From: Candidatus Latescibacterota bacterium
GTDB taxonomy: Bacteria > Latescibacterota > UBA2968 > UBA8231
Reading direction: 5' to 3'
Length of the DNA stretch: 64,000 bases
Assembly (NCBI GenBank): GCA_963422735.1
Contig: OY730476.1
Location: 1,504,001 to 1,568,000, forward strand
The position numbers and the translations under genes were made by a program. Position 1 is the first letter of the stretch. Each line of letters begins with the position of its first letter. This document shows positions 33,333 through 64,000 of the stretch, piece by piece. The notes below the pieces were generated by a model. The model did no database searches and was not told the origin of the DNA. It was given only the letters and a program-made list of their open reading frames with translations.

Positions 33333-34181
33333 CTAAACGCGGCGGAACTTCTGTACTCTATTGTGCAGAGTGGCTACTTCACCGATGTACAGCGAGCCTT
33401 CCTCGTCCACCCAAATGCTGTGTGGGGAGTCGGCGAATTGACCCGGGGCCGAGCCGTCCTCGCCCCAGCGGGCCAGCAGGTGCCCTTCTAGGTCGAATAT
33501 GCTGACGCGCGACCGGGCCTCGACCACGTACACTGTATTGTCCGGGGTGATGAAGAGATCCATGGGCGTTACCACATCGGTCCACTCGTCCAAGTAGCAG
33601 CCCTCAGAGTCAAAGCGCTGGATGCGGTTGTTTTCGCGGTCAACAGCCCAGACGCGTTCGTCGCGATCAACCCACAGGCTGTGGGGCAGGGCGAATTGAC
33701 CCGGACCAGTGCCCCCGGATCCCCACGAATGAAGCAATTCTCCCGCAGCCGAAAAGCGATGGATGCGAAACTGGCCGTACCCGTCGGCCACGTACAAATC
33801 CCCGGAAGGGCCGCACATGGCTTTGGTGGGCTGGTTAAAGGGCTGGTCGGGCGCACCCGGCACTTTAGGCGTGCCCCAAGTGTGGACCAGTGCCCCCTGC
33901 GGATTGAAGCAGCGGATGGTGTGGGTATCGGTGTCGGCCACGTACACTTGGTCTTGGCCGTCAACCCACAGGAGGTGAGGGTTTCCCAGCAGGTCGTCAC
34001 CCCAAGTGTCGAGATAGACTCCGTCGCAGTCGTAAACCAGCAGGGCGGGCGGGTGACGGCGGGCCACAAAGACCCGGCCCTCGGTATCGGCAGCCACTCC
34101 GGGCACGACGCCGCCCATGGGGCGGCCTTGGGGGCCGAGACCCCAGTGTTCGACGACTTCGTAATTATAGGTAGCACTCAT
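33333..34181 (-). CDS. NHL-repeat protein (peptidyl-alpha-hydroxyglycine lyase-like)
   Basis: FNQPT, LYVADGYG, GTGPGQFALPHSLWVD, DRENNRIQRF. Confidence 0.9.
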   Translation of the reverse strand: MSATYNYEVVEHWGLGPQGRPMGGVVPGVAADTEGRVFVARRHPPALLVYDCDGVYLDTWGDDLLGNPHLLWVDGQDQVYVADTDTHTIRCFNPQGALVHTWGTPKVPGAPDQPFNQPTKAMCGPSGDLYVADGYGQFRIHRFSAAGELLHSWGSGGTGPGQFALPHSLWVDRDERVWAVDRENNRIQRFDSEGCYLDEWTDVVTPMDLFITPDNTVYVVEARSRVSIFDLEGHLLARWGEDGSAPGQFADSPHSIWVDEEGSLYIGEVATLHNRVQKFRRV

Positions 34182-34504
34182 GGCGTCCCTCACAGTTTGG
34201 GGCAAAGATCAATGTATATTGGTAATACAGATAGCGGCCTGCAATAGTCACCGAGCAGCTTGAATACGCAAAAGAAAAAAGAAGCGGCCTATTATAGCGG
34301 GGGAACCGATGAAGATGTACTATCTGCAAAGACCGACTCGGCGTAGCGATCGGTTGGAGGGCTTTGCAAGCGCAAACCAAAACGCGGTGGAGGACTATCC
34401 AGAGGAACGCCGGGCCCAGATCGCCGCGGCCATCCGCCGGACCCTCCTTCCCTCGGAGGCGCTCGCCAACGATCCACCCGCAGAACGGCTCTTGCAGGAC
34501 GACG

Positions 34505-34689
34505 ACCTGCTGTAAAATCTTGTTCAAAAGTCCACGTCCAATGTCACTGCGATGTGGATTGGGCAGGACAAGACGTGTTGTTTCTCGGACCATATCAATG
34601 ATGATGGCCCCAGGATACGGGCCTTCAAATCCCAACTGCTGCAAATATCGAATAAGGTCGCGGCGACTAATCGGCCCAAATTTGGGCAT
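34505..34689 (-). pseudogene. HicA toxin remnant
   Basis: MPKFGPISRRDLIRYLQQLGFEGPY...LPNPHRSDIGRGLLNKIL; GxxH motif altered; 3' end runs into unrelated sequence. Confidence 0.7.
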
Positions 34690-34912
34690 CACACCGACTC
34701 CGGCACGCTATCCAAGCGCAACCCATCCACTTCTGGAAGCGGATGGCCCATTCTCAATCCGAGGATAATCCAGCTTTCAAGTACGGATTGCAATTCTTCT
34801 CCGCATTTGCATACACGCCTTGAAATCCGACGATTTCTCCACAAAACGTTTGCTCGTCGAGAACCTCGTATGTCGCATTTCTCATCGCCGATTGGATATG
34901 GGCAGTCAACAT
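34689..34912 (-). pseudogene. HicB antitoxin with internal deletion and frameshift
   Basis: MLTAHIQSAMRNATYEVLDEQTFCGEIVGFQGVYANA / EELQSVLESWIILGLRMGHPLPEVDG; TGATG overlap with hicA. Confidence 0.75.
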
Positions 34913-34940
34913 AGAATGCTCACTTTCAAAAGTGTTGCTT

Positions 34941-35981
34941 TCAATCCGCCACAGCGAGTTTCAGAAACTCGTATTCTAGCTTGCCCATAAAAAAATCGCC
35001 TTCGATGTCCTCAAGTTTTTCGACCGTTGCTTTAATCGCGTGTTCTGATTGGTCGATGCCGATCCAAGTTCTATTGATCCGTTGAGCGGATTTTAACGTC
35101 GTCCCCGATCCACAAAAACAATCCAAGACAATGCTTCTCGGATTGGAAGAAGTGCGAATAATCAAGTCCAAGAGTTCGGAATTTTTCTCCGTTGGATACA
35201 CCGGATATTGCGGATCCTTATACTCCCAAATATCTTGTACCCTCTTACCTTCTTTCTCGTCTGCAAATACCACTTTTCTTGGATTGCCCGTCGCCGACCA
35301 TTCTATCAGGCCGTCTCTATCCCACCGCTCTAGTGTTTTGACAGATGTTCGCCAATGGCGTCCTCGTGGCGGCATCATACCTCTAAAAGGACGATTTGAT
35401 TCTCCATTTACGGTTTCACCGGGTGCGTGAATAGGGACTGTGGTGTAGCGTCTTCCTTGTTTATCCTTCTTTGGGAACAGTCGCTCTATATCTTTTTCCG
35501 AGTACCTTTCCTTTGGTTCATTCCATATAGGATGCGATGTTTTGCTGTAAAAGAGGATTAAGTCTTTAACATTCCCATAACCCGTTCTTTTAAAGTTCTT
35601 GGGGTTACATTTTACTCTTGTTATGTCATTCCGAAAGTTCCCCATGCCAAATACTTCGTCCATCATAACTTTGACGTAATGGCCTATTTTGTAGTCTATG
35701 TGTAAGTAAATCGAACCTCTCGCAGATAAAAGCTCCCTTAGCAAAATCAATCTTTCGCGCAAAAACTCAACAAACTCAGTGCCTACTAATCGATCAGAAT
35801 AAGCGACGGATCCACGTTTCGAACTGCTAATCGTCGCAGCTCGATCTTCGGCAATGGTGAAATTGCTTCCCGTAGCGAAGGGAGGATCAATATACACTAA
35901 GTCTATTTTTTCTTGGAGTTTCCTTTCTTGCAAGAGATAGTTTAAGCCAGCAATATTATCGCCTTCAATGAGCAGATTCAT
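34941..35981 (-). CDS. Site-specific N6-adenine/N4-cytosine DNA methyltransferase (beta class), orphan
   Basis: YIDPPF before YPTEK and VLDCFCGSGTT; clearly lower GC than the flanks. Confidence 0.92.
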   Translation of the reverse strand: MNLLIEGDNIAGLNYLLQERKLQEKIDLVYIDPPFATGSNFTIAEDRAATISSSKRGSVAYSDRLVGTEFVEFLRERLILLRELLSARGSIYLHIDYKIGHYVKVMMDEVFGMGNFRNDITRVKCNPKNFKRTGYGNVKDLILFYSKTSHPIWNEPKERYSEKDIERLFPKKDKQGRRYTTVPIHAPGETVNGESNRPFRGMMPPRGRHWRTSVKTLERWDRDGLIEWSATGNPRKVVFADEKEGKRVQDIWEYKDPQYPVYPTEKNSELLDLIIRTSSNPRSIVLDCFCGSGTTLKSAQRINRTWIGIDQSEHAIKATVEKLEDIEGDFFMGKLEYEFLKLAVAD

Positions 35982-36058
35982 CAGTATATACCTCGCCCAT
36001 TTTATACAACCTACCACAAATTCTATTTATCGTTCTGGGGTTCCTTCCTATTGCTCGC

Positions 36059-36449
36059 CTATCTCTTCTCAGAAGTGTCTTGTAGATTCCCAGATTCAAA
36101 AGGGTTCAATAATGACAATTCTTGAATCCACTGAAAATCCTCCACATTGCGAGTTACCAACTTTAGTTCGTGTCTTAGTGTAGCCCCGGCTACGAGGGCA
36201 TCACCGAGGGACGTTTTCCGCTGCTGTCGGAGGGCTACTGCTCGGTCGAGGACGTCTTGTGAAAGAGGTAAGACCTGCGCCAAAAAAAATGCCCCAAGTA
36301 TTGCCGTTCCTCGTCATCGAGTTGATGATACCCGAGGACTTCTACGTAACTGACGGCTGAAATGGCCGGCGCATACTCAACAATCAACTGTCTCAGGTGA
36401 GTATATGTAGGTTGGGATGCATAGATAAGAACGTTGCTGTCAATGAGTA
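36059..36449 (-). pseudogene. VapC (PIN) toxin, frameshifted
   Basis: LIDSNVLIY...SAVSYVEVLG / LGDALVAGATL...LVTRNVEDF; frameshift at the G4/T8 tract near 36282-36295. Confidence 0.8.
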
Positions 36450-36593
36450 CTACTCTTCGGGCTCCGGCAATACGCGATCTCGGCGGAACTCGCTTGCTCC
36501 AGCACTATTTAACGGCACGTCTTTCTGAAGTTCTGGTGCTTCTTCGAGCCACTCGAAGCGGTCACCTTGGAGGAATGCTCTGTAGCTACGCAT
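36450..36593 (-). pseudogene. Probable shortened antitoxin upstream of vapC
   Basis: MRSYRAFLQGDRFEWLEEAP...RRDRVLPEPEE; abuts the PIN gene. Confidence 0.5.
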
Positions 36594-36629
36594 GACAACC
36601 TCTTGAGACTTCAGGCCCAGCGGCATACA

Positions 36630-38057
36630 TTAAAATGTATCGACCGGCATCTGCCGACACTCGCGGATGAAGACTTCGGCTTCGCGGCCATAGGTGAGAA
36701 AGGGATCGTCGAGGCTGAGGAACCTATCGTCGCCCACGCAAATGGAGTCCCAATCAATTTGGTAGCGCACCTTTTGATCGGTCAGCGCCCTCATCACTCG
36801 GGAGCGGGCGCAAGCGCGGGTGGTGGCCGGGGGATGCGTGATGGCTTGGTTGATCTGCTCGTCGCCGACGACTCGCTTGACCATCCCGCGCGCGTACAGA
36901 TCAAAATAGAGGCTCCGCGCCGCATTGAGATTGTGGTATTCCAAATCCAAACTTTGGATCCAAGTATCCTGCCAGTCCAACCCCTCTTCCCGCATGAAGT
37001 ACTCCAACAGCCACTTCTTGGCCACCCAATCGACGCGATCGACCAAGCATCCGGGATCGTGCTCTAAGGCGTCGATGACAAAGCGCCACTCGTCCAACAC
37101 CCAATCGCCCTCTTCATCCCGGCCGCGCAGATAGCGCTCGGCCAAGTCGAGATACGCACGCTGTATCTCCGTAGCCGTGGTGTAGCGGCCGTCCTCTAGC
37201 TGCACCTCCCAGCGATAGGTCATGTCGCGCGAAATGTCGCGGATGGCCTGTACCGGGTCGAGGAGCTTGATGTCGTCGCAGAGTATGCGCTCTTGCTCTT
37301 CCAAAAGCTGCAACACCAAAGCGGTGGTGCCCACCTTCAGGGCGGTGGCATACTCCATCATGTTCGAGTCGCCCACCAGCAGGTGCAAGCGGCGGTATAG
37401 CCCCCAATCAGCTAGCGGCTCGTCGCGAGTGTTGATGATCGCGCGACTGAACTGGATCCACTGGTAGATCTCGGTGACGATGTGATCGGCCCGCTGCGAG
37501 AGTTGGAATTCAACACCTTCGTCCTCGGCACTGCCGTACTCGAAAATATCCGTGTGGCAACCGACTCGGCCGGCACCGGCGAATATCTGGCGGGTGACAA
37601 AAAAGGGCAGCATGGTGGGCAGCAGCACTTGCGAAAACGGCACCTCTCGGCGCACGAGGTAGTTTTCGTGGCAGCCAAAAGTAGCCCCGGTGTAGTGGTC
37701 GATATTGTTCTTGAAAAAGGCCGCGCTATCGGCCAAGCCAAGCTGATCTAGCGCGCGCTGCACCAACCGCTCGCCAGCCCGGTCGGCAGCCACCAAATCA
37801 AAAAGCCCGGTGCATTCCGGGGTGGCGTACTCGACGTGGCCCATGTCGATGTACAAGCGCCCGCCGTTGAAGAGAAAACCGCCGTTGCCGGGCGGCTCGT
37901 CGCGGCCCCGATAGTGCATATCGACAATGCCCAAGCCCTCGCGGTAGAACACACAGTCCTTGACCTTTATCGACACAAAATCGGGACTCAAAAAGGGATC
38001 TGAAGCCGGCGGCAGACAGCCGAACTCGGTCTCTATCCCATAGATGCGACCTTCCAT
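36630..38057 (-). CDS. pafA: Pup/UBact-protein ligase (PafA)
   Basis: GIETEFG, FLFNGGRLYID.GH.EYATPEC, KNN, GCHENYL, IINTRDEP, RRLHL..GDSN; lacks the Dop loop. Confidence 0.9.
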   Translation of the reverse strand: MEGRIYGIETEFGCLPPASDPFLSPDFVSIKVKDCVFYREGLGIVDMHYRGRDEPPGNGGFLFNGGRLYIDMGHVEYATPECTGLFDLVAADRAGERLVQRALDQLGLADSAAFFKNNIDHYTGATFGCHENYLVRREVPFSQVLLPTMLPFFVTRQIFAGAGRVGCHTDIFEYGSAEDEGVEFQLSQRADHIVTEIYQWIQFSRAIINTRDEPLADWGLYRRLHLLVGDSNMMEYATALKVGTTALVLQLLEEQERILCDDIKLLDPVQAIRDISRDMTYRWEVQLEDGRYTTATEIQRAYLDLAERYLRGRDEEGDWVLDEWRFVIDALEHDPGCLVDRVDWVAKKWLLEYFMREEGLDWQDTWIQSLDLEYHNLNAARSLYFDLYARGMVKRVVGDEQINQAITHPPATTRACARSRVMRALTDQKVRYQIDWDSICVGDDRFLSLDDPFLTYGREAEVFIRECRQMPVDTF

Positions 38058-38058
38058 A

Positions 38059-38826
38059 CTAGACCTCGAAGTAGGAAGTGAGTGGCTCGGCTAATTCTTC
38101 CGAGGTGAGCAGGTGGAACTTCGACTTGGCGACGCGCTCGCGGTCGAGTACTGCGGCCTCGATGGTCAGCCCTTGCAAACCGCCCTTTAGAAAATCGCGC
38201 ACAGCCTCCGCGCTGGGCACCTCTCCATCGCGGACATCGAGGGTCAATCGGCCTAATCCCCACACCTCCAACGCCGTGCCCAAGGCTTGATCAAGGGGCG
38301 ATTCCGGATCAGCCACCTGCAGTTGTGCCGTCATGGCCTGCGCGCTCTCTGCGTTGCCGCTGATGGCCGCCATCCCGCCACTCTGGGCAAAGGACCCATC
38401 GGCGTCAATGGTAAAAAAGACGTCGCCGCCGTCTGGGTCTAGCTCGGCCATCATCACGCGGGCGACGAAGGGCGAGCGAAATAGCTCGTCGAAAGCCGCC
38501 TTCATCAGCGGGCCGATGCCAAAGCTGACTAACCGCTGCAAGGTTACGTCATTGGCCGACAGGTTGAACCCCTCGACATGGGCGATGTCGATGACGGCCT
38601 TGCGCAGCTTCTCGATGTCGGCCGGATGCCCCACGGCCGCGAAGGCGATCTCGTCGTACACCTCAAAGAGCTTGCGCGGACCTGGAGTAGCCGTCAGTAG
38701 TAGCACTCCGTCGGCATACGTCGTACCCACCACCGGACTGCCGCTCGCGAGCTGGTCTTCCACGTATTCACGGCGGTTGTTGATCGCCTCAACCCAGCGA
38801 TAAGGCTCCTCTAACATGCGTTTCAA
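38059..38826 (-). CDS. prcA: 20S proteasome alpha subunit
   Basis: GSPVV...DGVLL...RKLFEVYDEIAFAAVG, IEAAVLDR; operon context. Confidence 0.88.
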   Translation of the reverse strand: MKRMLEEPYRWVEAINNRREYVEDQLASGSPVVGTTYADGVLLLTATPGPRKLFEVYDEIAFAAVGHPADIEKLRKAVIDIAHVEGFNLSANDVTLQRLVSFGIGPLMKAAFDELFRSPFVARVMMAELDPDGGDVFFTIDADGSFAQSGGMAAISGNAESAQAMTAQLQVADPESPLDQALGTALEVWGLGRLTLDVRDGEVPSAEAVRDFLKGGLQGLTIEAAVLDRERVAKSKFHLLTSEELAEPLTSYFEV

Positions 38827-39593
38827 GCCCTTGGGTAGAGCGCGGCCAACTCCGCTTCGGGTACCGCGCTCAAGCCCGCGGCCGTCACCTGCACGACCTG
38901 GGGAAAGATATGCGCGGCCTCGCGGAAGCCTCCGGTAGCAGTGTCGTATTCAGCGGCCGTCTCCAGCATCTTGAGCACCAGCTCGACAGCCTGCTCCCCG
39001 GCCATTTCCCGCAGTGGCTGCGGCCCCCAGCGGTTTTGGTAGTACAGCGCACCGCGCACGATGTGTGAGCCCGACCCGGTGGTGCAAAAATCTACACACT
39101 CGAACTCGGCCCCCAAGAGGTCATAAAAGAAAATTTTGCCTTTTGCGGCCGCGTGGTCAAAGGCCGCGAAAATCGGCACCACTGCGCCAATCCCCTGTAT
39201 GGCCAACGGCAAGTTCTGGCGCAACAGCCGCGACAGAGTCCGCACCTTGCCGTCCAAACTCAGCCCTTGTAGCTGGCTACGGCGATAGTACTGCACCGAC
39301 ATTTCCAACATGCGCGCAATGTCCCATGCCACCGCCGGTGAGCCGGCAATGGCCATGACCGCTTCGTCGTCGATGATCAGCACTTTGTCGGCTCGGTCGT
39401 ACACCACCGAGTTTCCCATGGTGGCGCGGCGGTCGCCGGCTACCACCACCCCGTCGGCGCAGCGCACCGCTACAATCGTGGTGCCCTCGACCGGCTGCAA
39501 AGACGCTTCCGCAGCGACGACCGGGGCGGCGGGCAAGAGCTCTCGCTCCTTGAGCAGATCGAGAAAGTCGCAGCTTTCCATCGTTTCCATCAT
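38823..39593 (-). CDS. prcB: 20S proteasome beta subunit with propeptide
   Basis: PVEG|TTIVAV (N-terminal Thr nucleophile), AGDRRATMG, TGSGS, D.ATGG; likely ATG at 39593. Confidence 0.92.
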   Translation of the reverse strand: MMETMESCDFLDLLKERELLPAAPVVAAEASLQPVEGTTIVAVRCADGVVVAGDRRATMGNSVVYDRADKVLIIDDEAVMAIAGSPAVAWDIARMLEMSVQYYRRSQLQGLSLDGKVRTLSRLLRQNLPLAIQGIGAVVPIFAAFDHAAAKGKIFFYDLLGAEFECVDFCTTGSGSHIVRGALYYQNRWGPQPLREMAGEQAVELVLKMLETAAEYDTATGGFREAAHIFPQVVQVTAAGLSAVPEAELAALYPRA

Positions 39594-39602
39594 TTCAGTC
39601 CG

Positions 39603-39626
39603 CTCCCCTCGCCCAAGCAAGGGGAG
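39603..39626 (-). promoter_or_regulatory. Hairpin covering the prcB Shine-Dalgarno
   Basis: Minus strand CUCCCCUUGC-UUGG-GCGAGGGGAG; 10-bp stem ending 9 nt before the ATG. Confidence 0.55.
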
Positions 39627-39738
39627 ACCTTCTTGTGCTAAGGGTTGGTTCTCTTGCAATGCTCAATGTATGCGTCCTCAAAGGACAGGGCCATGTCGGC
39701 GAATTCTATGAGAGAAGAGGTCAGACAGGTCGTGACAG

Positions 39739-39927
39739 CTATTGTCCGGTGCGCTGGCGGTAGCGACGCGCCTGATTCGGATCTACTCGGCGCATCCGCT
39801 TGAGGATGTCGTCCGTGCTGGGGCGCTCGACCCTCGGCCGGCGCGGGCCGGCGTCTGGCTCCTCGCCGTCGTCGAGCGGCTTGGTCGGCCGGGGCGCGCG
39901 CTCCCGGTAATAAATAAAATCGCTCAT
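39739..39927 (-). CDS. ubact: Ubiquitin-like protein UBact
   Basis: 62 aa, disorder-prone; LKRMRRVDPNQARRYRQRTGQ C-terminus; sits between dop and prcB. Confidence 0.9.
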   Translation of the reverse strand: MSDFIYYRERAPRPTKPLDDGEEPDAGPRRPRVERPSTDDILKRMRRVDPNQARRYRQRTGQ

Positions 39928-41468
39928 GATGCCACCTCCGGTTTCGGGCTTCTACCCAGTTTGGCGAGCAAATCCTCGACGCTCGAAGCAGCGTCTAAGG
40001 CTTCATTATAATAAGCCGCTGTCTCCCTGCCGACACAAGCCTTGAGGTCAATGACCTCGGAGCGACCATCGAGGTCCAGCTCAATGCTGTCCCAATTGAG
40101 TGAGCGCACTGACGCGGAAAATTTCTGCAATATCTTGCCGCGGAAATAGGCCCGCGTGTCCCCGGGCGGATCGACCAACGCCCGGCACACCGCCTCCTCG
40201 GAGACAACGCGCTCTACTTGGCCCGCAGCCTCGAGCGTCGAGTACAACCCCTCAGTCGGGTCGATGTTGTGGTATTCGAGATCTTGGCTTTGCAGCCAAG
40301 CGCGGTCCTCCGGCCGTTCCCAATCGAGGCCCTCGGACTCGGCAAACGCATTCAAAAGCCACTTTTTGGTCACCCAATCGAGGCGTCCAATCAACTCTTG
40401 CGGGTCCCGCGCTAGGGAGTCCAACACGTTGCGCCAAGCCGAGAGGACCCAATCTGTCTCCTCGTCGCGGCCCTGAAAAACCCGCGTCGCCGCCGCCATA
40501 ATGGCCGTCTGTATCTCCAGTGCCGAACTCGACCCTCCCCCGGCCAAGGCCACCGGCCACTGCTGGGACTCGTCGCGGGAAATGGCCTTGAGCGCGCCAA
40601 TGGGATCGGCCAATGCAACCGCGGGCAACGCGCCGGTCTCTAGCAAGTCCAGCACCAAAGAAGCCGTGCCGACCTTGAGTGCAGTGGCGTATTCGCACAT
40701 GTTGGCGTCGCCGATAATTAGGTGCAGGCGGCGGTACTGCGCTGGATCGGCGTGCGGCTCGTCGCGGGTGTTGACCAGCGGGCGGCGGTGCATGGTATCG
40801 ACGCTGGCGATGACCTCGAAAAAGTCCGCGCGCTGGGCTAGCTGGTAGGTGGCGGCCCGCGCCCGGGCATCCTGCTCGACGCCGACCTTACCGGCCCCGG
40901 CAAAAATCTGGCGCGTCACCACAAAGGGCAGCAACCCGTCGATCACCTGCTGGAAGGGAATGTCGCGGCTGAGTAGGAAGTTCTCGTGGCAGCCGTAGCT
41001 GTGCCCCTCAAAGTCAGTGTTGTTTTTGTATAAGCGCACCACACCTCGGCCGCGGGCCGCGGTGCGCCGGTGTGCACACTGGAAGAGGATCCGCTCCCCG
41101 GCGCGATCGACGGCTACCAGGTCGCGGAGACTATAGCATTCTGGAGTGGAAAATTCCGGGTGGGTGTGGTCGTTGTACAGGCGGGCACCGTTGTGGACGA
41201 TCAGGTCGCTTTTGAGGTCTGCTAGCTGGATTGGGCGCTGGCGATCCTTCTGCAAGTGGACGGTCTCGTCCTTGTCGTTGCGGAGCGCGGCGACCTCAAA
41301 GCCGCGCATGTCGAGCCGTGGGTTTTCGAGCGCGTAATCCCAGAGGGCGACAAAATCTTGGTGCATATAGCAGCGGATCAGCTCCATGGACTCTACCACC
41401 ACATCCATGGACTCGCCCTCATCAACCTCGATGCCGTATTCGGTTTCTAGCCCGCAGAGCCGCTGCAT
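39924..41468 (-). CDS. dop: Deamidase/depupylase (Dop)
   Basis: GLETEYG, Dop-loop WDYALENPRLDMRGF, NGARLYNDHTHPEFSTPEC, LYKNNTD...SYGCHEN. Confidence 0.9.
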   Translation of the reverse strand: MQRLCGLETEYGIEVDEGESMDVVVESMELIRCYMHQDFVALWDYALENPRLDMRGFEVAALRNDKDETVHLQKDRQRPIQLADLKSDLIVHNGARLYNDHTHPEFSTPECYSLRDLVAVDRAGERILFQCAHRRTAARGRGVVRLYKNNTDFEGHSYGCHENFLLSRDIPFQQVIDGLLPFVVTRQIFAGAGKVGVEQDARARAATYQLAQRADFFEVIASVDTMHRRPLVNTRDEPHADPAQYRRLHLIIGDANMCEYATALKVGTASLVLDLLETGALPAVALADPIGALKAISRDESQQWPVALAGGGSSSALEIQTAIMAAATRVFQGRDEETDWVLSAWRNVLDSLARDPQELIGRLDWVTKKWLLNAFAESEGLDWERPEDRAWLQSQDLEYHNIDPTEGLYSTLEAAGQVERVVSEEAVCRALVDPPGDTRAYFRGKILQKFSASVRSLNWDSIELDLDGRSEVIDLKACVGRETAAYYNEALDAASSVEDLLAKLGRSPKPEVAS

Positions 41469-41476
41469 GAGCTGAG

Positions 41477-43186
41477 TCAGATCACCTGGCCGACGCGCTT
41501 TTCGGGTGCTTTTTCCGGCTGGGGCCTGACAGGCGTCACCCTCACCACGTTCTCCGGCTCGTAGTCGAGCAGCTTGAGCCAGTCCTCGACGCTGTCCGAG
41601 GGCGGGAACACCTCGTTCTCGCGGTATTCGGCCCGCGCCGCCCGCCGCAGATCCGCGCCGCGAATCCCGCCTTCGGCGTCGCCCTCGGCAATGGCGCGCT
41701 TGATTGCCATCTCCTTGGCCCGCGATATGACCGAGGCGATGATGGCTCCGGAAATCAGGTCGCCGCGATAGAGAACTTCTTGGCGGCCGCTGCGCAGCGA
41801 CACCTCCAAGAACTGGGCCTCTTCGCTTTTGGCAAACAACTCGTCTAGGCCCTCCTGTATCAGGGCCTCGCGTGCAGCCGCTTCGCCACCGTGCTGCTCC
41901 ACCTCGGCGCGATCGAGCGGCAGCTCGGGCTTGAGATAAATCCCTAAAATGTCGCCGGCCGCCTCGTAGTTGGGGCGCGCGACCTTGATCTTGCGGTCGA
42001 TGCGGCCGGGCCGGAGCACGGCCGGGTCGATCAGATCGTGGCGGTTGGAGGCCAAAATCAGCACCACGTCGTGCAGCGACTCAATGCCGTCCATCTCGCT
42101 GCAAAACATCGGCACGACCGTGTTGGAGATGTTGTGGCTGCGCATCGAGCGCCGGGTGCCCAAGATCGACTCAGCTTCGTCGATAAAGACAAAGGGCAAA
42201 TAGCCTTCCTTGCGCTTTTGGCGCGCCTGGGCAAAGACCTCGCGTACCATGCGCTCGGTCTCGCCGAGCCACATGTTGAGAATCTCCGGCCCTTTGATGT
42301 GCATGAAATACTCTTCCAACTCCAGTCCCTCGACCTCGCGCATGTGCTGCACCAAGTTGTACGCCGTGGCCTTGCCGATGAGGGTCTTGCCGCAGCCCGG
42401 AGGACCGTAGAGCAGGAAGCCCTTGGGCGTCGAGTACTCGAAGCGCTCGAAGAGCTGAGGGTGCAACGCGGGCAATTCAATGGTGTCGCGGATGGCCTCT
42501 ATTGCTTCGGCTTGGCCGCCGATGCTCTCCCAAGGGGTCGGGGGGACGTCCTCGATGAAGTACTCCTTGCTCTCAGCGGACTGCAAAACTTCCAGCGCAA
42601 CCTTGTAGGCCGGGTCCATCCGCACCTCGTCGCCGATTTGCAAATCCTCGTCAGCCAACTCAGCGGCGCGCTCCACGACCACCTCTTGAGTGCCGTGCGC
42701 TTGGGCGATCCGCAACCGGCCCCCGCCGAGCAGGTCGCCGACCTTGGCCACCGGCCCAGAGGGGCTGTGCCCCAAGTTGCCGACGACCGCGTAGGCTTCG
42801 TTTACCAGCACCCGGCAGCCGACCTTGAGCTGGGACGCATCGACGCGCGGGTCAATGTTGGCATAGTACTCGGCACTACCGACGAAGACCGTGGCAATCC
42901 CCTCGCTCGGCATTCCGAGGAAGATGCCGACGCGGTTGGCCGGTGCTGTCACTTTCTCTAGGGCGGCTTCCATCTCCACGAGAGCCCGGCGCGCCTCCTG
43001 AAAGGAAATCTCCCGCTCCATCAGCTGGCGTCGGAGGCGGTACAGCAGGGGCCGGGCCGGGTCGCGGTCTGGAGCCAGCGCGAGCAGCTGATCGACCAAG
43101 CGCAACGGCTCGGCAGTCTGCTCCTCCGGCTCTTGGTCCTTGTCGTATTCGTGCGATTCCCTTTTCAATTTTTTCAATCTTTTCAA
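41477..43186 (-). CDS. arc: Proteasomal AAA ATPase (ARC/Mpa)
   Basis: N-terminal coiled coil, OB-like region, LYGPPGCGKT, IKGPEILN, FIDEAES, SNR.DLIDPAVLRPGRID; TTG start with RBS. Confidence 0.92.
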   Translation of the reverse strand: MKRLKKLKRESHEYDKDQEPEEQTAEPLRLVDQLLALAPDRDPARPLLYRLRRQLMEREISFQEARRALVEMEAALEKVTAPANRVGIFLGMPSEGIATVFVGSAEYYANIDPRVDASQLKVGCRVLVNEAYAVVGNLGHSPSGPVAKVGDLLGGGRLRIAQAHGTQEVVVERAAELADEDLQIGDEVRMDPAYKVALEVLQSAESKEYFIEDVPPTPWESIGGQAEAIEAIRDTIELPALHPQLFERFEYSTPKGFLLYGPPGCGKTLIGKATAYNLVQHMREVEGLELEEYFMHIKGPEILNMWLGETERMVREVFAQARQKRKEGYLPFVFIDEAESILGTRRSMRSHNISNTVVPMFCSEMDGIESLHDVVLILASNRHDLIDPAVLRPGRIDRKIKVARPNYEAAGDILGIYLKPELPLDRAEVEQHGGEAAAREALIQEGLDELFAKSEEAQFLEVSLRSGRQEVLYRGDLISGAIIASVISRAKEMAIKRAIAEGDAEGGIRGADLRRAARAEYRENEVFPPSDSVEDWLKLLDYEPENVVRVTPVRPQPEKAPEKRVGQVI

Positions 43187-43217
43187 TCCGCTCCCCTCTT
43201 CAAAGCACGGGAAGATA

Positions 43218-43931
43218 CTAGTAGATCACGTCGCCGAGACGCCCATAGCGCACTCGGCTGGGCAGGCGCCAGACAAAGCTGGCCACCACCGCGGGTAGCG
43301 AACTCAAGCCACTGTAGTAAGGCCCGCGGGTGTCGGGCTCCCACGACCAATAAATATTCATAGCCTTACCCTTAATCAACCGCTTGGGTACGGCGCGAAA
43401 GTAGCGGCTGTCGGCACTGTTGTCGCGGTTATCGCCCATCATAAAGAAATGCCCATCGGGCACAATATAGGGGCCGAAATTGTCGCGAGATCCGCGCGCC
43501 GCCGGGAGCACTCTGCGGTCGGCGTACTTGGCCAGCGGGGGGTCTTGCACCGGCTCATCATCGACGTAGAGCACCTTGTTGATGATATGCACGCGTTGTC
43601 CCCCAACAGCGACGCAACGCTTGATTAAATCGCGCCTCCCGTCCTGCGGGGAGCGGAAAATGACGATGTCGCCCGGCTGCGGTTCCCTGAGCCCGGGCAA
43701 GCGAAATAGGGAAACGCTCGTCAGGGGCACATCGACCGGAACGCCGTAGATAAACTTGTTGGCCAGCAGGTAATCGCCCACCAAGAGCGTATCCTCCATC
43801 GAGCTGGAAGGGATGTAAAAGGCCTGCACCACACCGGTGCGAATGACCAGAAACAAACCCACGACCGTCAGTATAGAATACAGATATTGGCCAAATTCGG
43901 ACTTTTGCTTGGCGTACTTCATCCGCAGCAT
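43218..43931 (-). CDS. lepB: Signal peptidase I
   Basis: IPSSSMEDTL, DLIKR, MMGDNRDNSADSR. Confidence 0.95.
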   Translation of the reverse strand: MLRMKYAKQKSEFGQYLYSILTVVGLFLVIRTGVVQAFYIPSSSMEDTLLVGDYLLANKFIYGVPVDVPLTSVSLFRLPGLREPQPGDIVIFRSPQDGRRDLIKRCVAVGGQRVHIINKVLYVDDEPVQDPPLAKYADRRVLPAARGSRDNFGPYIVPDGHFFMMGDNRDNSADSRYFRAVPKRLIKGKAMNIYWSWEPDTRGPYYSGLSSLPAVVASFVWRLPSRVRYGRLGDVIY

Positions 43932-43980
43932 CTCCTCAGACCAGAGTATAATAAACTACCCCCCCAGCCGCCATTTGCGC

Positions 43981-44976
43981 TTACCGCTGCGGCACCTTCA
44001 CCACCTGACCGGTTTCCCAGCTTTCGATGAGCGCCTCAATTACGAGCTGGACCCGCAAGGCGTCCGCTCCTTTGGCATCCACCTGCGAGGGCGGGACTTG
44101 GTTTAGCAAGTCGTCGATCCAGGCGTTGATGCGAGCCGGAAAGGTATCCGCAAAGCCGCCCATGCCCCCGAGGTGATCGTAGCTTTCCACCTCGCGCGAA
44201 AAGCGCGGGTAAAACGTCAGCTTCTCGCAGGCTTCATTGATGATGACTCGTCCCTCCGAGCCGACCAGTTCCAAGGTCTCCAAGCCGTAGCTCCCCCCGG
44301 CGTCGTACGACCCGGTCAAATGCCCGATGACGCCATTCTCGTACAGCAGATTCGCCTGCACGTTGGACCAGATCTGCCGCCCTTCTCCTTTCTTGAAAAA
44401 GGCCTGTGCCCGATCCACCCCTCCAGCGAAATAGCTCATCACGTCCAGCGAGTGCGGGTGCAGGGCGCGGATGTGGAACCACGGGCTCGACTCGTTGGGG
44501 TTGTTGATCCACATCGTCATGTTAATTATCTGTAGCCCGCCGAGCCGCCCGTTGGTCAGCCATTCCTTGGCCTTGACGGCCGCCGGCGTGAAGCGGTGGT
44601 TCAGGTTGATCCCGTAGGGCAACTGCTTTTCTTCGGCCAAGGCCACCATCTCCCGCGCCTTGGAAATTTCATTGGAAATCGGCTTCTCGCCCAGCACCGG
44701 AATGCCGGCCCGCAAAAGCGCCATCGTCGGCTCGTAGTGATCGCCCCCGTTCTCCACCCCGGCCGTTGTCACCGAACAAGCGTCGAGCCGCAGGCCGCTA
44801 GCGACCATCTGTTCGACCGAGTAAAAGGCCTGTGCCCCGTAGCGCTCGGCCGCAGCATCCGCCTGTTTTTCGACCATATCGCACACGGCAACGACCTGTG
44901 CGTTCTCGTTTGCAGCGTAGCAACGGGCGTGATTGTTGCCAATTCCACCCATGCCGACAATCCCGATGTGAAGCAT
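43981..44976 (-). CDS. Gfo/Idh/MocA oxidoreductase
   Basis: GIVGMGGIG, VLGEKP, NHRFTP; likely ATG at 44976. Confidence 0.9.
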   Translation of the reverse strand: MLHIGIVGMGGIGNNHARCYAANENAQVVAVCDMVEKQADAAAERYGAQAFYSVEQMVASGLRLDACSVTTAGVENGGDHYEPTMALLRAGIPVLGEKPISNEISKAREMVALAEEKQLPYGINLNHRFTPAAVKAKEWLTNGRLGGLQIINMTMWINNPNESSPWFHIRALHPHSLDVMSYFAGGVDRAQAFFKKGEGRQIWSNVQANLLYENGVIGHLTGSYDAGGSYGLETLELVGSEGRVIINEACEKLTFYPRFSREVESYDHLGGMGGFADTFPARINAWIDDLLNQVPPSQVDAKGADALRVQLVIEALIESWETGQVVKVPQR

Positions 44977-57687: not shown

Positions 57688-60600
57688 ATGGTTGCGCTGA
57701 TTATCGCCTTTCTGATCGCCTTTGCCATCGGCCCGGTGGCGGCTTCTGCAGGGCCACGGGCTGTCGTGGAGCATTTGTCCTCGCTGGGGTCGCGGGTGGC
57801 GGGGTATTCGGGAAGTACCCGGGCGGCGGAGTATGTGGAGGGGCGGTTACAGGCGTTGGGGTGGCCGACGCGACGCGACACCTTTGCCGTGGTGGTGCCG
57901 ATCGACCAAGGCGGGCGGTTGGAGTGGGAGGATGAGTCGGTGGCCCTATATGCGGTGTGGCCGAATGGGGCGCGGACTTCGACCGTGCCGCCGGAGGGGT
58001 TGCGAGCACCGGCGATTTGGGGCGGCGATGGGGATTGGAGCGATTTCAATGGGCAGGAGGTGGCTGGGCGGGTGGTGGTGCTGGATTTTGCCAGTGGGGA
58101 CGCTTGGTTGAAGGCCGCGTCGTTGGGGGCGCAGGCGGTGGTGTTTGTGGCCGCGGATTCGGCTACTACGCAGCAGGGGCAGAGCAAATACGTACGGGCA
58201 CCGTTGGATGTGCCGCGCTTTTGGGTGGAGCGGGCCGCTGGGCAGCGGCTGCGGCGGCGGTTAGTGGGTGGAGAGGTGGAGGTGGAGTTGTGGGGGCGGA
58301 TGGATTGGCAGGAGCGGGCGGCGCACAACGTGTGGGCAGTGATGCCGGGAAAAGGTGCGGAGGCTTCCGTGCGAGGTGGCCGGGACGAGACGGTTCTGAT
58401 CCATGCGTATTACGACGCGCCGTCGGTGGTGCCGGCGCGGGCACCGGGGGCAGAGGCGGCAGTGAGTGTGGCGGCGCTGTTGGAGGTGGCCGCTCGGTTG
58501 CAAGCGAACCCACCGGCGCACACAGTGGTGCTCGCCGCGCTGGGTGCCCACTTCCAAGGGCGGCAGGGCATGGTCGCCTTCCTCAATCGGCACGCCCGCC
58601 GCCAACCACACTACGCGGACCGGCTCGCCGAGCCGCTGGATATTGACCTGTTCATTGGACTCGATTTGTCCAGCCACGGCGAGCGGGTGGTGCTGTGGAA
58701 CAACACGGATAGCTACGCGCTCAAGCGGTTTTTCGTGCCCTTTGGCCGTCGCTTTGCCGAGTACGCGGCGGCACTGGGCCGCGCCGAGGCATTGGCCAAT
58801 GGCATCAGCCCAATTCGGGGAATGGATTGGGACAGCTATATGCCTAGGGGTTTGGCCGCCGATGGGGAGTTGGCACTCGAGGCGGGATTCCCGTCGCTGA
58901 CGCTGGCCACGGTAGGCGATGCCCGCTTTGCGCTGGATTTGCCGCTGGACACGGACGCGAGAGTGGCGTGGGACCATGTGGAAGGGCAGGCGGCGTTGGT
59001 GGCCGATCTGCTGGCTCATGCGTTGGCCGATACGGCACTGTTAGCCGGGCGGGAGCGGCTCGACGAGGCGTTGGAGGATCGGCTACGGGATTTGCGGGTC
59101 AAAGCGCGGACGTTCCCTCGGCGCAGTCAGGTGCCGGACCGACCGGTGGCCGGGGCACTGGTGGCGGTGCAGGTGGAGAAAGAAGAGCGCAAAGGGGTGC
59201 GCGACACGCGCTACTTTCTCGCGGATAACGCCGGGACGGTGCGGGTACCTGGGCTGGAGCAGGGGACGTATCCGCTGGCCGTGACGGCACTGGACGCCGA
59301 GCGGGGGACGATCACCCACGTCGTAGATTTGAGCATCCGCGCCCAGAAGCACCACGGTGCGCCGGGATTGGACGGTCGCTTGTTCAATAATGTGCGCTGG
59401 CTGCACAATGAGCAGATCGCCGTGCTCTTCCCCGGGGTGGGTCGCCCCCTGTACGGCTTGGTCGAGCCGCGTCTTTTGCGTGCGTTGAACAAAGTGAAGG
59501 TGATCTCGGCGGACGGGGGCGAGCCGGGCCAGTACGGGTACGCGCTGGATTCGAGCAGCATCGGCTCGGTAGGGGTGCTTTACGGGCCAGCCGATGCCGC
59601 GACCGACGACCGCGTCAAAGTGATTTTGGACGGCCAGCTTTTGCTGCTCAACAGCGAGGGTAGCCACAGCGAGGCCGAAGCGCGGGGCCGGGGGTTTTTG
59701 CTGGCTGAGGAAGGGTTTGGGGCCGCGACGCTGCAGGCGGCGCGGGATGTGTGGAACTTGGATGCGGCGCGGCTGGGAGTGCTCGCAGAGCACGGCATTG
59801 AAAATCAGCGGTTGACGCGGCTACACGCACAGGCGGCCGCGGCCATAGCCGAGGCCGAAGCAGCGGCCGAGCAACTGAAGTGGGATGAGTACGTGGCGTG
59901 GAGCCGCAAGGCACTGGGCTTGGAGACGCGGGCCTACCCGGAGGTCTTGGCGACGCTCAACGATGTCCTCAAGGGGGTGATCTTCTTTTTGGCGCTGTTG
60001 TTGCCGGCGGCCTTTTTTGGGGAGCGGCTCGTATTTGCTGCGGCCGATATTCGCCGGCAGCTCGCTGGCTTTGGGCTGTTCTTGCTGGCGATTTGGCTGA
60101 TTTTGGCGCAAGTGCATCCGGCCTTTGCGCTGGCCGAGCCGCTGGTGGTGCTGCTGGCGTTTGCGATTATGGCGATGGGGGCGTTGGTGCTCTTTATGGT
60201 GGTGGGCCGGTTCAACCGCGTCATGGCCCAGCACCAGAGCCAGCAGACGCGGATCCACGCCCAAGACCTGAGCCGCTTGAGCGCGTCTTATGCGGCCTTC
60301 ATGCTTGGGATTTCCAATATGCGGCGGCGACCCCTGCGCACCGGCCTGACGCTGGCAACGCTGACGCTTTTGACGTTTACCCTGCTCTCTTTTACCTCGT
60401 TTGAACAGCAAATCCGCTACGCGAGTTTCCGGCTGCCACACGCCGCGTTGTACCCCGGGATTCTCATCCGCGACCGCGGCTGGGAGCACCTGACGCCGGA
60501 GGCACTCGACTATGCCGAGTCGCACTTTGGCGGCCGCGGCTGGATGGGGCGGCGCGGCTGGTACGCGGCCGAAGACGGCAAGGGGGGCTGGATTGGGGTG

Positions 60601-63600
60601 GCGGTGGCGGGGAAGACGGTGCGAGCCACGGGCTTGTTGGGCCTGACGCCGGAGGAGGCGCAGATCACCCAGATAGATGCGAGCTTGGTGGCCGGGTCGT
60701 TTTTTGCCGCAGATGACGAGGCTACCTGCATCCTGCCGCTGGACATGGCCGAGGCGCTGGGCATTGGGGTTGGGGATCGGGTCGAGGTATTCGGGCGCGC
60801 ACTGGAGGTGCGAGGGATTGCCGACCCAGAGCGATTGGGTGCGCTGCGCGACCTCGACGGCGAGAGCCTGATGCCGGCCGATTTTGTCCTGTCGGGCGCG
60901 GAGGTGCTCCAGCTAGGAGCGGCGCGGGAAGTGGATATTGCCGGCGCGGAGGATCCACACGCCCTGCGCCCCTTCGTCCACCTAGAGCCGCACCACGTGG
61001 TCCTCGTGCCTTACCAAACGCTGGCCGAAGCCGGTGGGAGCTTGCACTCGGTGGCCGTGCGCTTTCCGGCGGCCACCGACGGGCAGGCGCTGGTCGAGGA
61101 CTATCTGACGCGGGTGGCGGCCACCTTGTTCGTCGGCTCGCCGGACGGGGAAGTGATGGCTCTAAGCTCGGTGGGGCTGACGGCTGTGGAAGGGCTGGGG
61201 GCACTGGCGATCCCAGCACTGGTGGCCGCACTCATTGTACTCAATGCGATGATGGGGGCGGTGTACGAACGCCTACGCGAGATCAGCATCTACTCCTCGG
61301 TGGGGCTAGCTCCCCTGCACATTGCGCTGCTGTTTGTGGCCGAAGCCTGCGTCTATGCGGTATTGGGGACGACGTTGGGGTATTTGCTGGGCCAAGGGTT
61401 GGGGCGGGTGCTGTTGGGACTGGGGCTGTTGCAGGGTCTGACCTTGAACTACTCGTCGCTGGCGGCGATTGGGGCCGCGCTGGCGGTGATGGGGGTGGTG
61501 TTGCTTTCGACGATCTATCCGGCGCGGCAGGCGGCGCGGCAGGCGGTGCCGGATGTGGTGCGGCGCTGGCGGCCAGACCCTCCCGGCGGCGACGAGTGGC
61601 TGTTTGAGTTCCCCTTCATGCTCGGCGAGGGAGAGATCGAGGGGGTGTGCGGCTTTTTGGCCAACTACTTTAGGGCCTTTGGTCAGGCGACGCTGGGAGA
61701 TTTTTACGTCGAAGATATGCAAGTTACACAAGCCGATGGCTATCGCCTCGCGTTTGCTGTGTGGCTGGCTCCTTTTGACTTGGGGGTGAGCCAAGAGGTG
61801 GTCGTGGAGTTTGTGCCAGCCGGAGGGCGGGCGCGGGCGATGGAAGTCAGGTTGCGCCGGCTAAGCGGCGAGCGCCACTACTGGCAGCGGCTCAACTTGC
61901 GATTGGTGGAGGCGCTGCGGAAGCAGATGTTGATTTGGTACGCGCTCAGGGAAACTGAGCGGGTCCAGCACGTGGAGTCGGCGCGGGCGCTGGCAGCCGA
62001 GCAGGCTGAGCAGCGCGTCGAGGAACAGTCGGCAGCGGAACCGCCGGCGTCCTTTACTTGGCGGGGGTTTGCGGTGGGGGGCCTGTTGGCCTTGGGCATC
62101 GGCATGGGGGCACCCTACGCGGTGATTATGCTGCAAGGATCGTACATGGCACTCAACAGCTCGTCGCCCGGGGCGATCTTTCTGTTTTTTGTCTTAGTGG
62201 TGTTGGTCAATACCCTACTGCGGGCACTAGGCCGCGGCCTCGCGCTGGGCCAAGCCGATTTGGTACTCATTTATGCGATGATGCTGTTGGCATCGGCGGT
62301 ACCAACGCAGGCGTTTGTCGGCTACCTGATTCCGATCATCAGCGGGCTGTACTACTATGCGACCCCGGAAAACAACTGGGGCGAGATTTTCTTTCCGCAC
62401 GTAACGCCGTGGCTGGTACCGCAGGACCGGCAGGCGATTGTCGATCTGCACGAGGGGCTGCCGCCCGGGGAGAGCATTCCGTGGGGGGCTTGGAGCGAGA
62501 CCCTGAGCTATTGGTACGTCTTCTTTTTGGTACTGAGCTTTATGATGCTCTGCATGAGTTCCATCCTGCACCGGCAGTGGTCGCAGCACGAGCGGCTGGC
62601 CTATCCCATGGTGCAACTGCCGCTTAAGATGGTAGAAGAGGGCCGGCCGGGGTTTAAGCTAGCGCCGCTTTTTAAGCAGCGGCTGTTGTGGATCGGTTTT
62701 GCGGTGCCGTTCGTCCTGCTGTCGCTCAAGGGGCTGCACTACTACTTCCCGGCGGTGCCGAAGCCGATCCAGTCGGCTGGGCAACTGGCGTGGATCGGCA
62801 AGGGGATGGAGCTGGGCTTGGATTGGGTGTACGCGTGGATCGGCTTTTTCTATTTGGTCAACCTAGACATTTCCTTTTCGATTTGGTTTTTCTACGTCCT
62901 CAACAAGGCGCAAGAGGGAATTTTCGCCTCTTTGGGCATTGCTAGCAGCGAAAAGCTGAGTCTCTACTCCTACTCGCAAACGGCGGACCTGACGCACCAA
63001 GTGATGGGTGCTTGCCTGATCTTTGTCGGCTACACCTTGTGGATGGGACGGCGGCACTTGGGGGCGGTGTGGCGCAAGGCGTGGCGCGGCGACCCCGCGG
63101 TGGATGATGCAGGGGAAATGCTTTCCTACCGGGTGGCGGTCTTTGGCTTTTTGGCTAGCCTGCTCTTGGTGGGCGTCTGGCTGTGGGCGTCCGGGGTGCC
63201 GCTGACGATTTTGCCGCTGTTTTTGCTGGTGTGCTTGATATTCTACGTATTCGTCACGCGGGCGGTGGCCACGGCCGGGCTGGCGACAGCGCGCTCGCCG
63301 ATGGTGGCGGCGTTTTTCGTCATTTCCGCTGTCGGCGCACCAGCGATTGGGGCCAAGGGGCTGACGGCCCTGACCTTTACCTACATCTGGCAGTCCGAGA
63401 TGCGGCTCTTTCCAATGATTGCCGCCGCCAATTCGCTCAAGCTGGCCGAGGCGGTGGTTGGCTCTAAAAGGCGGCTGTTTTGGGGGATGGCACTGGCGTT
63501 GGTGGTGAGTTTGGCCGCAGCGACGTGGATCATTTTTCAGGTGTGCTACGAGCACGGCGGGATCAATTTGCATCCGTTTTTTATGACCCGTCAGGCCAAT

Positions 63601-63972: not shown

Positions 63973-64000
63973 GGCGAAACTCTCAACAGAGCACTACATC

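Follow-up and report, generated by a model that had tools for sequence, protein, structure and literature searches.

Which enzymes would attach a tag to proteins, and which would prepare and remove it, in a bacterium whose proteasome operon encodes a small glutamine-ended protein of another family in place of Pup? The question is raised by a six-gene locus at positions 36630-43186 of a 64,000-nucleotide (nt) window, by which we mean the whole stretch of DNA analysed. The window belongs to a Candidatus Latescibacterota metagenome-assembled genome (MAG), a single 4.95-Mb contig that is 95% complete. The initial annotation of this DNA, made from the letters and their open reading frames (ORFs), had read the locus as a complete operon of six tightly spaced genes that serves a ubiquitin-like tag, UBact, and a proteasome in an apparent diderm.

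A complete UBact-proteasome operon

The six ORFs, arc-dop-ubact-prcB-prcA-pafA-like, all lie on the (-) strand at the coordinates first proposed, and all six genes are named by Pfam and NCBIfam models. Four of the five junctions are tight: an 8-nt gap separates arc from dop, dop and ubact overlap by 4 nt (ATGA), prcB and prcA also overlap by 4 nt, and 1 nt lies between prcA and the pafA-like gene. The description as tightly spaced therefore suits these four junctions but not the fifth, where a 157-nt spacer (39582-39738, (-)) stands between ubact and prcB. Genome-wide, there is a single gene for UBact, and Pup_ligase genes number two. The six-gene operon is intact. Hidden Markov model (HMM) scores, conserved synteny and intact catalytic residues support the claim that it is a complete, glutamine-terminated UBact-proteasome operon from outside the Actinobacteria. 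It belongs to a known, bioinformatically catalogued system, for which Pfam and NCBIfam models exist, and departs from the ordinary in only a few details.

The tag is UBact and ends in glutamine

The gene ubact (39739-39927, (-)) sits between dop and prcB in the proteasome operon and encodes 62 amino acids (aa). When the HMM check was run, the protein scored above both curated UBact cut-offs, with 72.6 bits for PF20513 (cut-off 27.8) and 73.6 bits for NF033388 (cut-off 35), and no Pup family was listed against it at E <= 0.01; its assignment to UBact rather than to Pup stands. Its end, RRYRQRTGQ, was also read correctly and fits R-[T/S]-G-[E/Q], the C-terminal motif that Lehmann, Udasin, Livneh & Ciechanover are said to have given for UBact in 2017 (BBRC 483:946). 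Pup, by comparison, ends in GGQ or GGE, and the tag found here further differs from it in having a strongly basic C-terminal half.

The 14 residues before the final one (V-D-P-x-Q-A-R-R-Y-R-Q-R-T-G) do not vary among the 30 homologues that were aligned. The last residue itself varies: across 77 related loci the tag ends in RTGQ at 41 and in RTGE at 36, and on the ARC tree of 74 loci the glutamine/glutamate end state switches at least three times. These 74-77 tag loci were all retrieved through Dop, and cannot be used to show that glutamate-ended lineages keep Dop. In actinobacteria the Pup-Gln form is deamidated before ligation (Hecht et al. 2020, PMC7947786). The glutamine end of the tag thus implies a deamidation step, and Gln-ended UBact would, by analogy, require activation by Dop. 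Since trypsin cuts after Arg59, the predicted remnant of UBact-Glu on a substrate lysine is Thr-Gly-Glu, which adds 287.11 Da by our own arithmetic; the remnant foreseen in the initial annotation is the right one.

One of the two Pup_ligase paralogues is a Dop

The gene dop (39924-41468, (-)) encodes 514 aa and carries a Dop-loop insertion. The protein scores 529.5 bits for Pup_ligase (Pfam) and, over the full model, 454.9 bits for TIGR03688 (Dop; cut-off 492.3, not reached), which is 94 bits above its own score of 361 with the PafA model. Its best solved relatives are the Acidothermus Dop chains 5lrt and 4b0r, matched at 407 bits over residues 1-504 with the Dop-loop region included, and its AlphaFold 2 (AF2) model has a mean confidence (pLDDT) of 91.1. 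Next to the catalytic Asp it reads D-H-T-H and S-T-P, the Dop state according to Table 1 of the same paper (PMC7947786).

For phylogenetic placement, a whole-library search supplied 150 representatives, of which 121 were kept by length (430-640 aa), and trees were built with FastTree (133 rows) and IQ-TREE (49 rows). The IQ-TREE tree places every Dop-like sequence among its 49, the 514-aa protein included, on one side of a branch with a support of 100 (Shimodaira-Hasegawa-like approximate likelihood ratio test, SH-aLRT), and two representatives within this Dop clade reach the NCBI Dop equivalog score. By its sequence, then, the 514-aa gene product is a true Dop-clade enzyme. Both Pup_ligase paralogues of the genome keep G-x-E-x-E, the catalytic Asp and the His, Glu and Arg columns that are invariant across canonical PafA and Dop. 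Among the members of the clusters behind 10 of the tree representatives, a single taxon label was present, Armatimonadota, for a representative in a Dop subclade.

The unfoldase and the 20S core

The first gene, arc (41477-43186, (-)), encodes 569 aa when read from the listed TTG, although its actual start is uncertain by a few codons. Pfam recognises AAA (106 bits), Prot_ATP_ID_OB_N (60 bits) and OB_C (53.6 bits), and residues 61-550 align to residues 76-584 of Mycobacterium tuberculosis Mpa at 338.5 bits; the architecture OB_N, OB_C, AAA is Mpa-like by both the Pfam matches and this alignment. The translation contains a Walker A motif, GPPGCGKT, and a DEAE motif, and TIGR03689 is matched at 455.4 bits (cut-off 504.75, not reached). 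A complex prediction with two copies of ARC residues 20-205 and UBact, run without controls, gave a score of 0.02 against a mark of 0.32, which speaks neither for nor against binding.

The beta subunit gene, prcB (38823-39581, (-)), encodes 252 aa from the ATG at 39581, and its longest ORF reaches 39659. It scores 102.8 bits for the Pfam Proteasome family and 169.8 bits for TIGR03690 (cut-off 191.9, not reached). The protein has a 33-aa propeptide followed by Thr1 (G|TTIVAV), and Asp17, Lys33 and GSGS align to the Rhodococcus (beta-1) and M. tuberculosis PrcB sequences. The alpha subunit gene, prcA (38059-38826, (-), 255 aa), is matched by Pfam Proteasome at 31.2 bits (cut-off 22.4) and by TIGR03691 at 79.2 bits (cut-off 139.05, not reached). 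All eight solved matches listed for it at E <= 0.001 are PrcA of Rhodococcus or M. tuberculosis. Judged by these comparisons, it is a very divergent subunit that is closest to bacterial PrcA.

A pathway modelled on pupylation and the evidence that tests it

It is very probable that these genes make up a working UBact-proteasome pathway, which operates in the manner of the actinobacterial Pup-proteasome system. Every biochemical step, ligation by the second Pup_ligase paralogue and docking of ARC on the 20S core included, is modelled here by homology. UBact would be made with a C-terminal Gln, which the 514-aa Dop-clade enzyme would deamidate to Glu; the same enzyme would probably also strip UBact off substrates. 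The 475-aa Pup_ligase paralogue encoded by the pafA-like gene (36630-38057, (-)) would phosphorylate the terminal Glu with ATP and couple UBact to substrate lysines. The ARC/Mpa-like hexamer would then bind the tag through its N-terminal coiled coil, unfold the substrate and thread it into the PrcA/PrcB 20S core. Ligation is assigned to the 475-aa protein because a tag system needs a ligase, because the other paralogue is clearly a Dop and because the gene occupies the pafA position; by elimination, it is the presumptive UBact ligase.

The results in this and the following paragraphs that set the locus apart from its actinobacterial models count against this account. All five enzyme and structural genes miss their TIGR equivalog cut-offs, so that their products are not strictly orthologous to the actinobacterial proteins that have been characterised. 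No published biochemistry on any UBact system was found in the literature searched, a body that did not include the founding 2017 paper. Further points concern the 475-aa protein, whose gene is the least usual of the six. It scores 474.9 bits for Pup_ligase (Pfam), and the two equivalog models barely separate, with 367.6 bits for TIGR03686 (PafA; cut-off 551.3) against 364.5 for TIGR03688 (Dop), while the canonical PafA representatives P0170 and P0150 reach 692.7 and 657 with TIGR03686. Solved Dop chains are nearer to it (292 bits) than solved PafA chains (253 bits). A Foldseek comparison of its AF2 model (pLDDT 87.7) points the same way, with query TM-scores (TMq) of 0.85-0.87 to Acidothermus Dop (0.76 for the shorter 9cku chain) and 0.78-0.84 to PafA. 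The protein lacks the Val58 insertion beside the catalytic Asp and the G-S that follows this Asp in PafA, and reads D-M-G-H there. Pro stands in the place of PafA Ala67, and the alpha-loop residues of PafA are missing. In the AF2 models, which stand here in place of a solved structure, its alpha-loop (residues 190-209) forms the same turn-strand-loop-strand as in the Dop model; the alpha-loop of PafA folds as a helix (PMC7947786).

The trees likewise keep this protein apart. Clade B, supported at 96 SH-aLRT, unites the Latescibacterota proteins of the 475-aa type with a few representatives and lies outside the clade that reaches the PafA equivalog score. FastTree places it next to Dop, and IQ-TREE places it with a fourth group, A2, outside the PafA and Dop pair. 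On these sequence comparisons the 475-aa protein is a separate deep Pup_ligase lineage, neither canonical PafA nor Dop. Used as a query, it gave at least 120 matches, and the 120 listed are all close relatives (79-97% identity); those that bear an organism name come from Latescibacteria/Latescibacterota or Gemmatimonadota/Gemmatimonadetes MAGs and are generically called 'PafA2 family', so that they offered no anchors for the tree. The gene first called pafA stands in the pafA position and has intact catalytic residues, but it should not be counted as canonical PafA, from which its score and its own clade separate it.

The same results could mean that the labour is divided otherwise than in the Pup system: the clade B enzyme might be unspecialised or bifunctional, acting as ligase and hydrolase, or might be a second hydrolase, with ligation shared with or done by the Dop-clade enzyme. 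The near-equal model scores, the closeness to solved Dop in sequence and fold, the missing Val58 insertion and modelled helix and the deep separate clade would all suit such an arrangement, as would the argument of Hecht et al. that the ancestral enzyme was a ligase which also had some Dop-like activity through promiscuity (PMC7947786). We nevertheless consider it improbable. The 514-aa protein has the Dop-loop, the His after the catalytic Asp and S-T-P, and characterised Dop enzymes do not ligate (PMC7947786). The 475-aa protein, for its part, lacks this Dop-specific His, and at the discriminating positions of Table 1 of Hecht et al. 2020 (PMC7947786) it is in the PafA state at Phe34, Phe47, Ala65, Thr66, His174, Ser186 and Asp418 and in an adjacent two-residue indel. 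Most of the Dop-loop is also missing from it, with about 18 inserted residues against about 40 in Dop. An approximately unbiased (AU) test does not reject clade B and canonical PafA as one clade (p = 0.395), which leaves clade B free to be the sister of PafA, and the gene stands where pafA stands in the operon. The account with the 475-aa paralogue as ligase is retained.

The remaining point against a Pup-like pathway lies at the end of ARC. Its C-terminus reads KRVGQVI, without the GQYL tail, and a penultimate Tyr was found in none of 79 related ARC C-termini; in Mpa, the GQYL tail is required for 20S gate opening (PMC8142254). Together with the very divergent alpha subunit, this might indicate that tagging and proteolysis are only loosely coupled, with UBact serving mainly as a reversible regulatory mark or for remodelling by ARC, and the 20S core being fed in some other way. 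Such uncoupling appears unlikely to us, since arc, prcB and prcA share the operon with the tagging genes at 69 of 80 loci and the beta active site is intact. The last two ARC residues are, moreover, almost always Val or Ile among the 79 C-termini, with G-Q-V-I in this genus; G-Q-V-I resembles G-Q-Y-L, and two conserved terminal branched hydrophobic residues fit co-evolved docking better than loss. This conservation of the terminal residues suggests that the docking motif in the ARC tail has changed and has not been lost, and the coupled UBact-proteasome pathway remains our preferred account.

Conservation of the operon in the class

A Dop search of species-representative genomes gave 356 relatives, and the locus comparisons use the best 80. 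These 80 are nearly all labelled Candidatus Latescibacterota, with some Gemmatimonadota and one Handelsmanbacteria (L035); their Dop identities run from 93% down to 58%, and that of L035 is 69%. At 69 of the 80 loci all six genes lie in the same order on one strand, and 10 of the other 11 loci are interrupted by a contig end.

Across the phylum, 128 of the 168 genomes carry UBact. In the class of the window it is near-universal, with 69/75 genomes in family f1, 3/3 in f2, 22/22 in f3 and 31/31 in f4; it is also present in both genomes of f9 and in none of the 34 genomes across the other nine families of the phylum. The presence of the tag in nearly the whole class and the conserved gene order mark the operon, on comparative grounds, as an old and vertically kept trait of the class.

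Some loci depart from the common layout. In L070, after position 7530, arc and dop occur without ubact, prcB, prcA and pafA on the same strand within 6 kb past dop. In L017 about 1.9 kb (L017:7530-9434) is inserted between dop and ubact, where the other loci have the 4-nt overlap. Three genomes, G038, G066 and G109, have two UBact matches each, and the pair in G038 is in tandem, about 150 nt apart (G038:C69:7179-7576).

A decaying or recently transferred operon was considered as well and is ruled out by the intact catalytic residues and the class-wide synteny.

Relation to known systems

UBact systems are the Gram-negative counterpart of pupylation. Lehmann et al. reportedly described UBact-proteasome loci in Gram-negative and candidate phyla in 2017, with Handelsmanbacteria, and not Latescibacteria, in their list of phyla. 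The locus analysed here shows no essential difference from UBact loci of such phyla, having the same tag family, the R-T-G-[Q/E] tail and the order mpa/arc-dop-ubact-prcB-prcA-pafA; what sets this strain apart is its 157-nt ubact-prcB spacer, together with the hairpins resembling clustered regularly interspaced short palindromic repeats (CRISPR) that are described below. In the literature searched, no study of this system in the phylum was found.

The actinobacterial Pup-proteasome systems of Mycobacterium, Rhodococcus, Corynebacterium and Acidothermus have the same six roles in the same order. The likeness extends to the Dop-loop and conserved Dop active site, to an Mpa-like protein with two OB domains and AAA, to a Thr1 beta subunit with a propeptide and to a Gln-ended tag. 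Apart from the tag with its RTGQ tail, the systems differ in the end of the unfoldase (GQVI in ARC, GQYL in Mpa), in a ligase candidate that is no member of the canonical PafA clade and has no Val58 insertion, and in five enzyme and structural proteins that here stay below the NCBI equivalog cut-offs. Dop and PafA are found mainly in Actinobacteria and Nitrospirae and sporadically elsewhere, with a single-copy relative in Planctomycetes; Latescibacterota is not named in the portions of that survey available to us (Hecht et al. 2020, PMC7947786).

As a discovery the locus adds little, its kind being catalogued and near-universal in the class. It may be of more use as a clean test case, first for whether a Gln-ended UBact needs Dop. 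It could also serve to ask whether a Pup_ligase enzyme that is neither PafA nor Dop is the ligase, which bears on the separation of ligase and hydrolase in this family, and how ARC opens the 20S gate without a Tyr-containing GQYL tail. The non-canonical ligase lineage and the Tyr-less ARC tail are the points worth taking to the bench and, more speculatively, so are the hairpins at two gene starts.

The ubact-prcB spacer, the start of prcB and transcript contigs

In 10 of 14 aligned close relatives, prcB begins about 5-12 nt past the ubact stop, has 251-254 residues and starts with MES(C)DF; the other four have longer ubact-prcB spacers. Because the matching ATG aligns with the starts of the close relatives, prcB most likely begins at ATG 39581 (MESCDF...). 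Contigs from RNA libraries of related strains skip exactly 39583-39738 in three runs, and a near-identical contig of another run, with 4 differences over 1,386 nt, includes the spacer; on this account the 157-nt spacer is a real strain-level insertion.

Metatranscriptome contigs from three libraries of two studies cover 25, 26 and 30 of the 30 bins of the operon at 90-99% identity, and one contig of 2,835 nt extends from prcB, across ubact and dop, into arc; a stretch that is uncovered in a given run carries no weight. Since these are assembled contigs from relatives, RNA libraries can contain DNA and a contig is no proof of a transcript, they give a weak hint that the operon is expressed.

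Scans of 36000-44200 gave 4 promoter-like sites (2.7 expected) and 14 terminator-like sites (7.5 expected), none of them convincingly at an operon boundary, and scans of the window with Rfam (at the gathering threshold) and for transfer RNA (tRNA) genes gave no match. A sigma-70-like promoter match (10 of 12 positions) was observed at 40005-40033 on the (-) strand, in the 3' end of dop and about 80 nt upstream of ubact, and may be an internal promoter for the tag.

CRISPR-repeat-like hairpins at two gene starts

Within the spacer, at 39592-39628 (-), lies a solitary 37-nt hairpin that resembles a CRISPR repeat. A 10-bp stem closes a 4-nt loop, a tail ending in GGACTGAAAT follows, and the element stops 10 nt before the prcB ATG. 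Its 3' tail looks like that of type I-C repeats. A more degenerate copy occupies about 43180-43217 (-), in the 31-nt lepB-arc gap, and the listed TTG start of arc falls inside its GGATTGAAA tail; the ATTGAAA tail is there repeated three times in tandem. Among the 80 related loci, 5 have the prcB-side hairpin in this spacer. Of the 31 genomes in the genus, 13 carry the 3' part of the arc-side hairpin with the N-terminal codons of arc behind it.

The same 37-nt repeat forms an array of four repeats and three spacers directly after cas3-cas5d in this genome (array, G000:C1:3169196-3169456; whole locus, G000:C1:3166089-3169456), and its repeat is 85-92% identical to the prcB-side hairpin. Cas5d is the processing nuclease of type I-C repeats. 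The locus is an apparent remnant of type I-C; searches of the genome for Cas7 and Csd1 gave no match, the Csd1 control having matched nothing anywhere. A separate type III-B locus (G000:C1:896036-908107) comprises Cmr2, Cmr3, repeat-associated mysterious proteins (RAMPs), Csm6 and Cas1, with a 14-repeat array of a different repeat. Elsewhere, at G000:C1:3412728-3413834, a unit recurs 16 times in tandem, once every 73 nt or so; this array has near-identical 'spacers' and is not CRISPR-like, and another solitary copy of the hairpin stands about 1.1 kb from it, at 3414966 (G000:C1).

In addition to the Pup-like account, and not as an alternative to it, both hairpins could be functional RNA elements of the operon, either processing sites for a nuclease such as Cas5d or elements that stabilise the transcript or control translation; the levels of arc-dop-ubact would then be uncoupled from those of prcB-prcA-pafA. 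The two copies sit immediately 5' of where arc and prcB begin, the same repeat is arrayed directly downstream of cas3-cas5d in this very genome, and the copies are kept in the genomes and loci counted above. Cas5d was also found in 10 of 13 genomes with the arc-side copy against 7 of 18 without it, a comparison among related genomes that are not independent. We hold such a function to be doubtful. Three genomes, G126, G141 and G142 (94% complete), keep the arc-side copy without a Cas5d match; the prcB-side copy is missing from most relatives and is on that ground dispensable; and the 160-nt stretch spanning the spacer folds no better than shuffled sequence (z = -0.77, not unusual). The RNA data consist of assembled contigs, from which transcript ends, strand and expression level are not readable, and the elements may be neutral insertions of a mobile repeat. 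The narrower proposal, that the hairpins are co-opted RNA processing or stability sites, cut by Cas5d of the remnant locus or by another nuclease, so that the operon transcript would be split and the amount of tag adjusted relative to proteasome, is less likely still. If it were true, a CRISPR nuclease would have a housekeeping proteolysis operon as a host target.

The envelope and the surroundings of the operon

The organism had been called an apparent diderm. A full-length BamA, in one 803-aa frame with matches of 351.5 and 85.7 bits (cut-off 297.15), agrees with this, but LpxC, LpxB and LptD gave no match in the single-contig, 95%-complete genome, where the positive controls matched. A diderm envelope is plausible, possibly with an outer membrane that lacks classical lipopolysaccharide.

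A signal peptidase I gene (Peptidase_S26, 156 bits; 43218-43931, (-)) is co-oriented with the operon, 31 nt upstream of arc, and the two may share a transcript. The guanine-plus-cytosine (GC) content is 0.62-0.63 across 38-42 kb and 0.57-0.66 elsewhere in the window; the 36-38 kb bin, which spans pafA and the edge of a low-GC island, has 0.56. Just downstream of the operon, the stretch 34000-36600, probably a small mobile island, has a GC content of 0.49 against about 0.62. It carries an N6/N4 DNA methyltransferase gene (34941-36017), a PIN-domain fragment (36059-36283), a HicA-like gene inside the ORF 34165-34692 and a UPF0150/HicB-like gene (34754-34912). At the other side of the window, a 2094-aa ORF (57688-63972, (+)) reaches almost to the window end at 64000, in a region with strongly positive GC skew.

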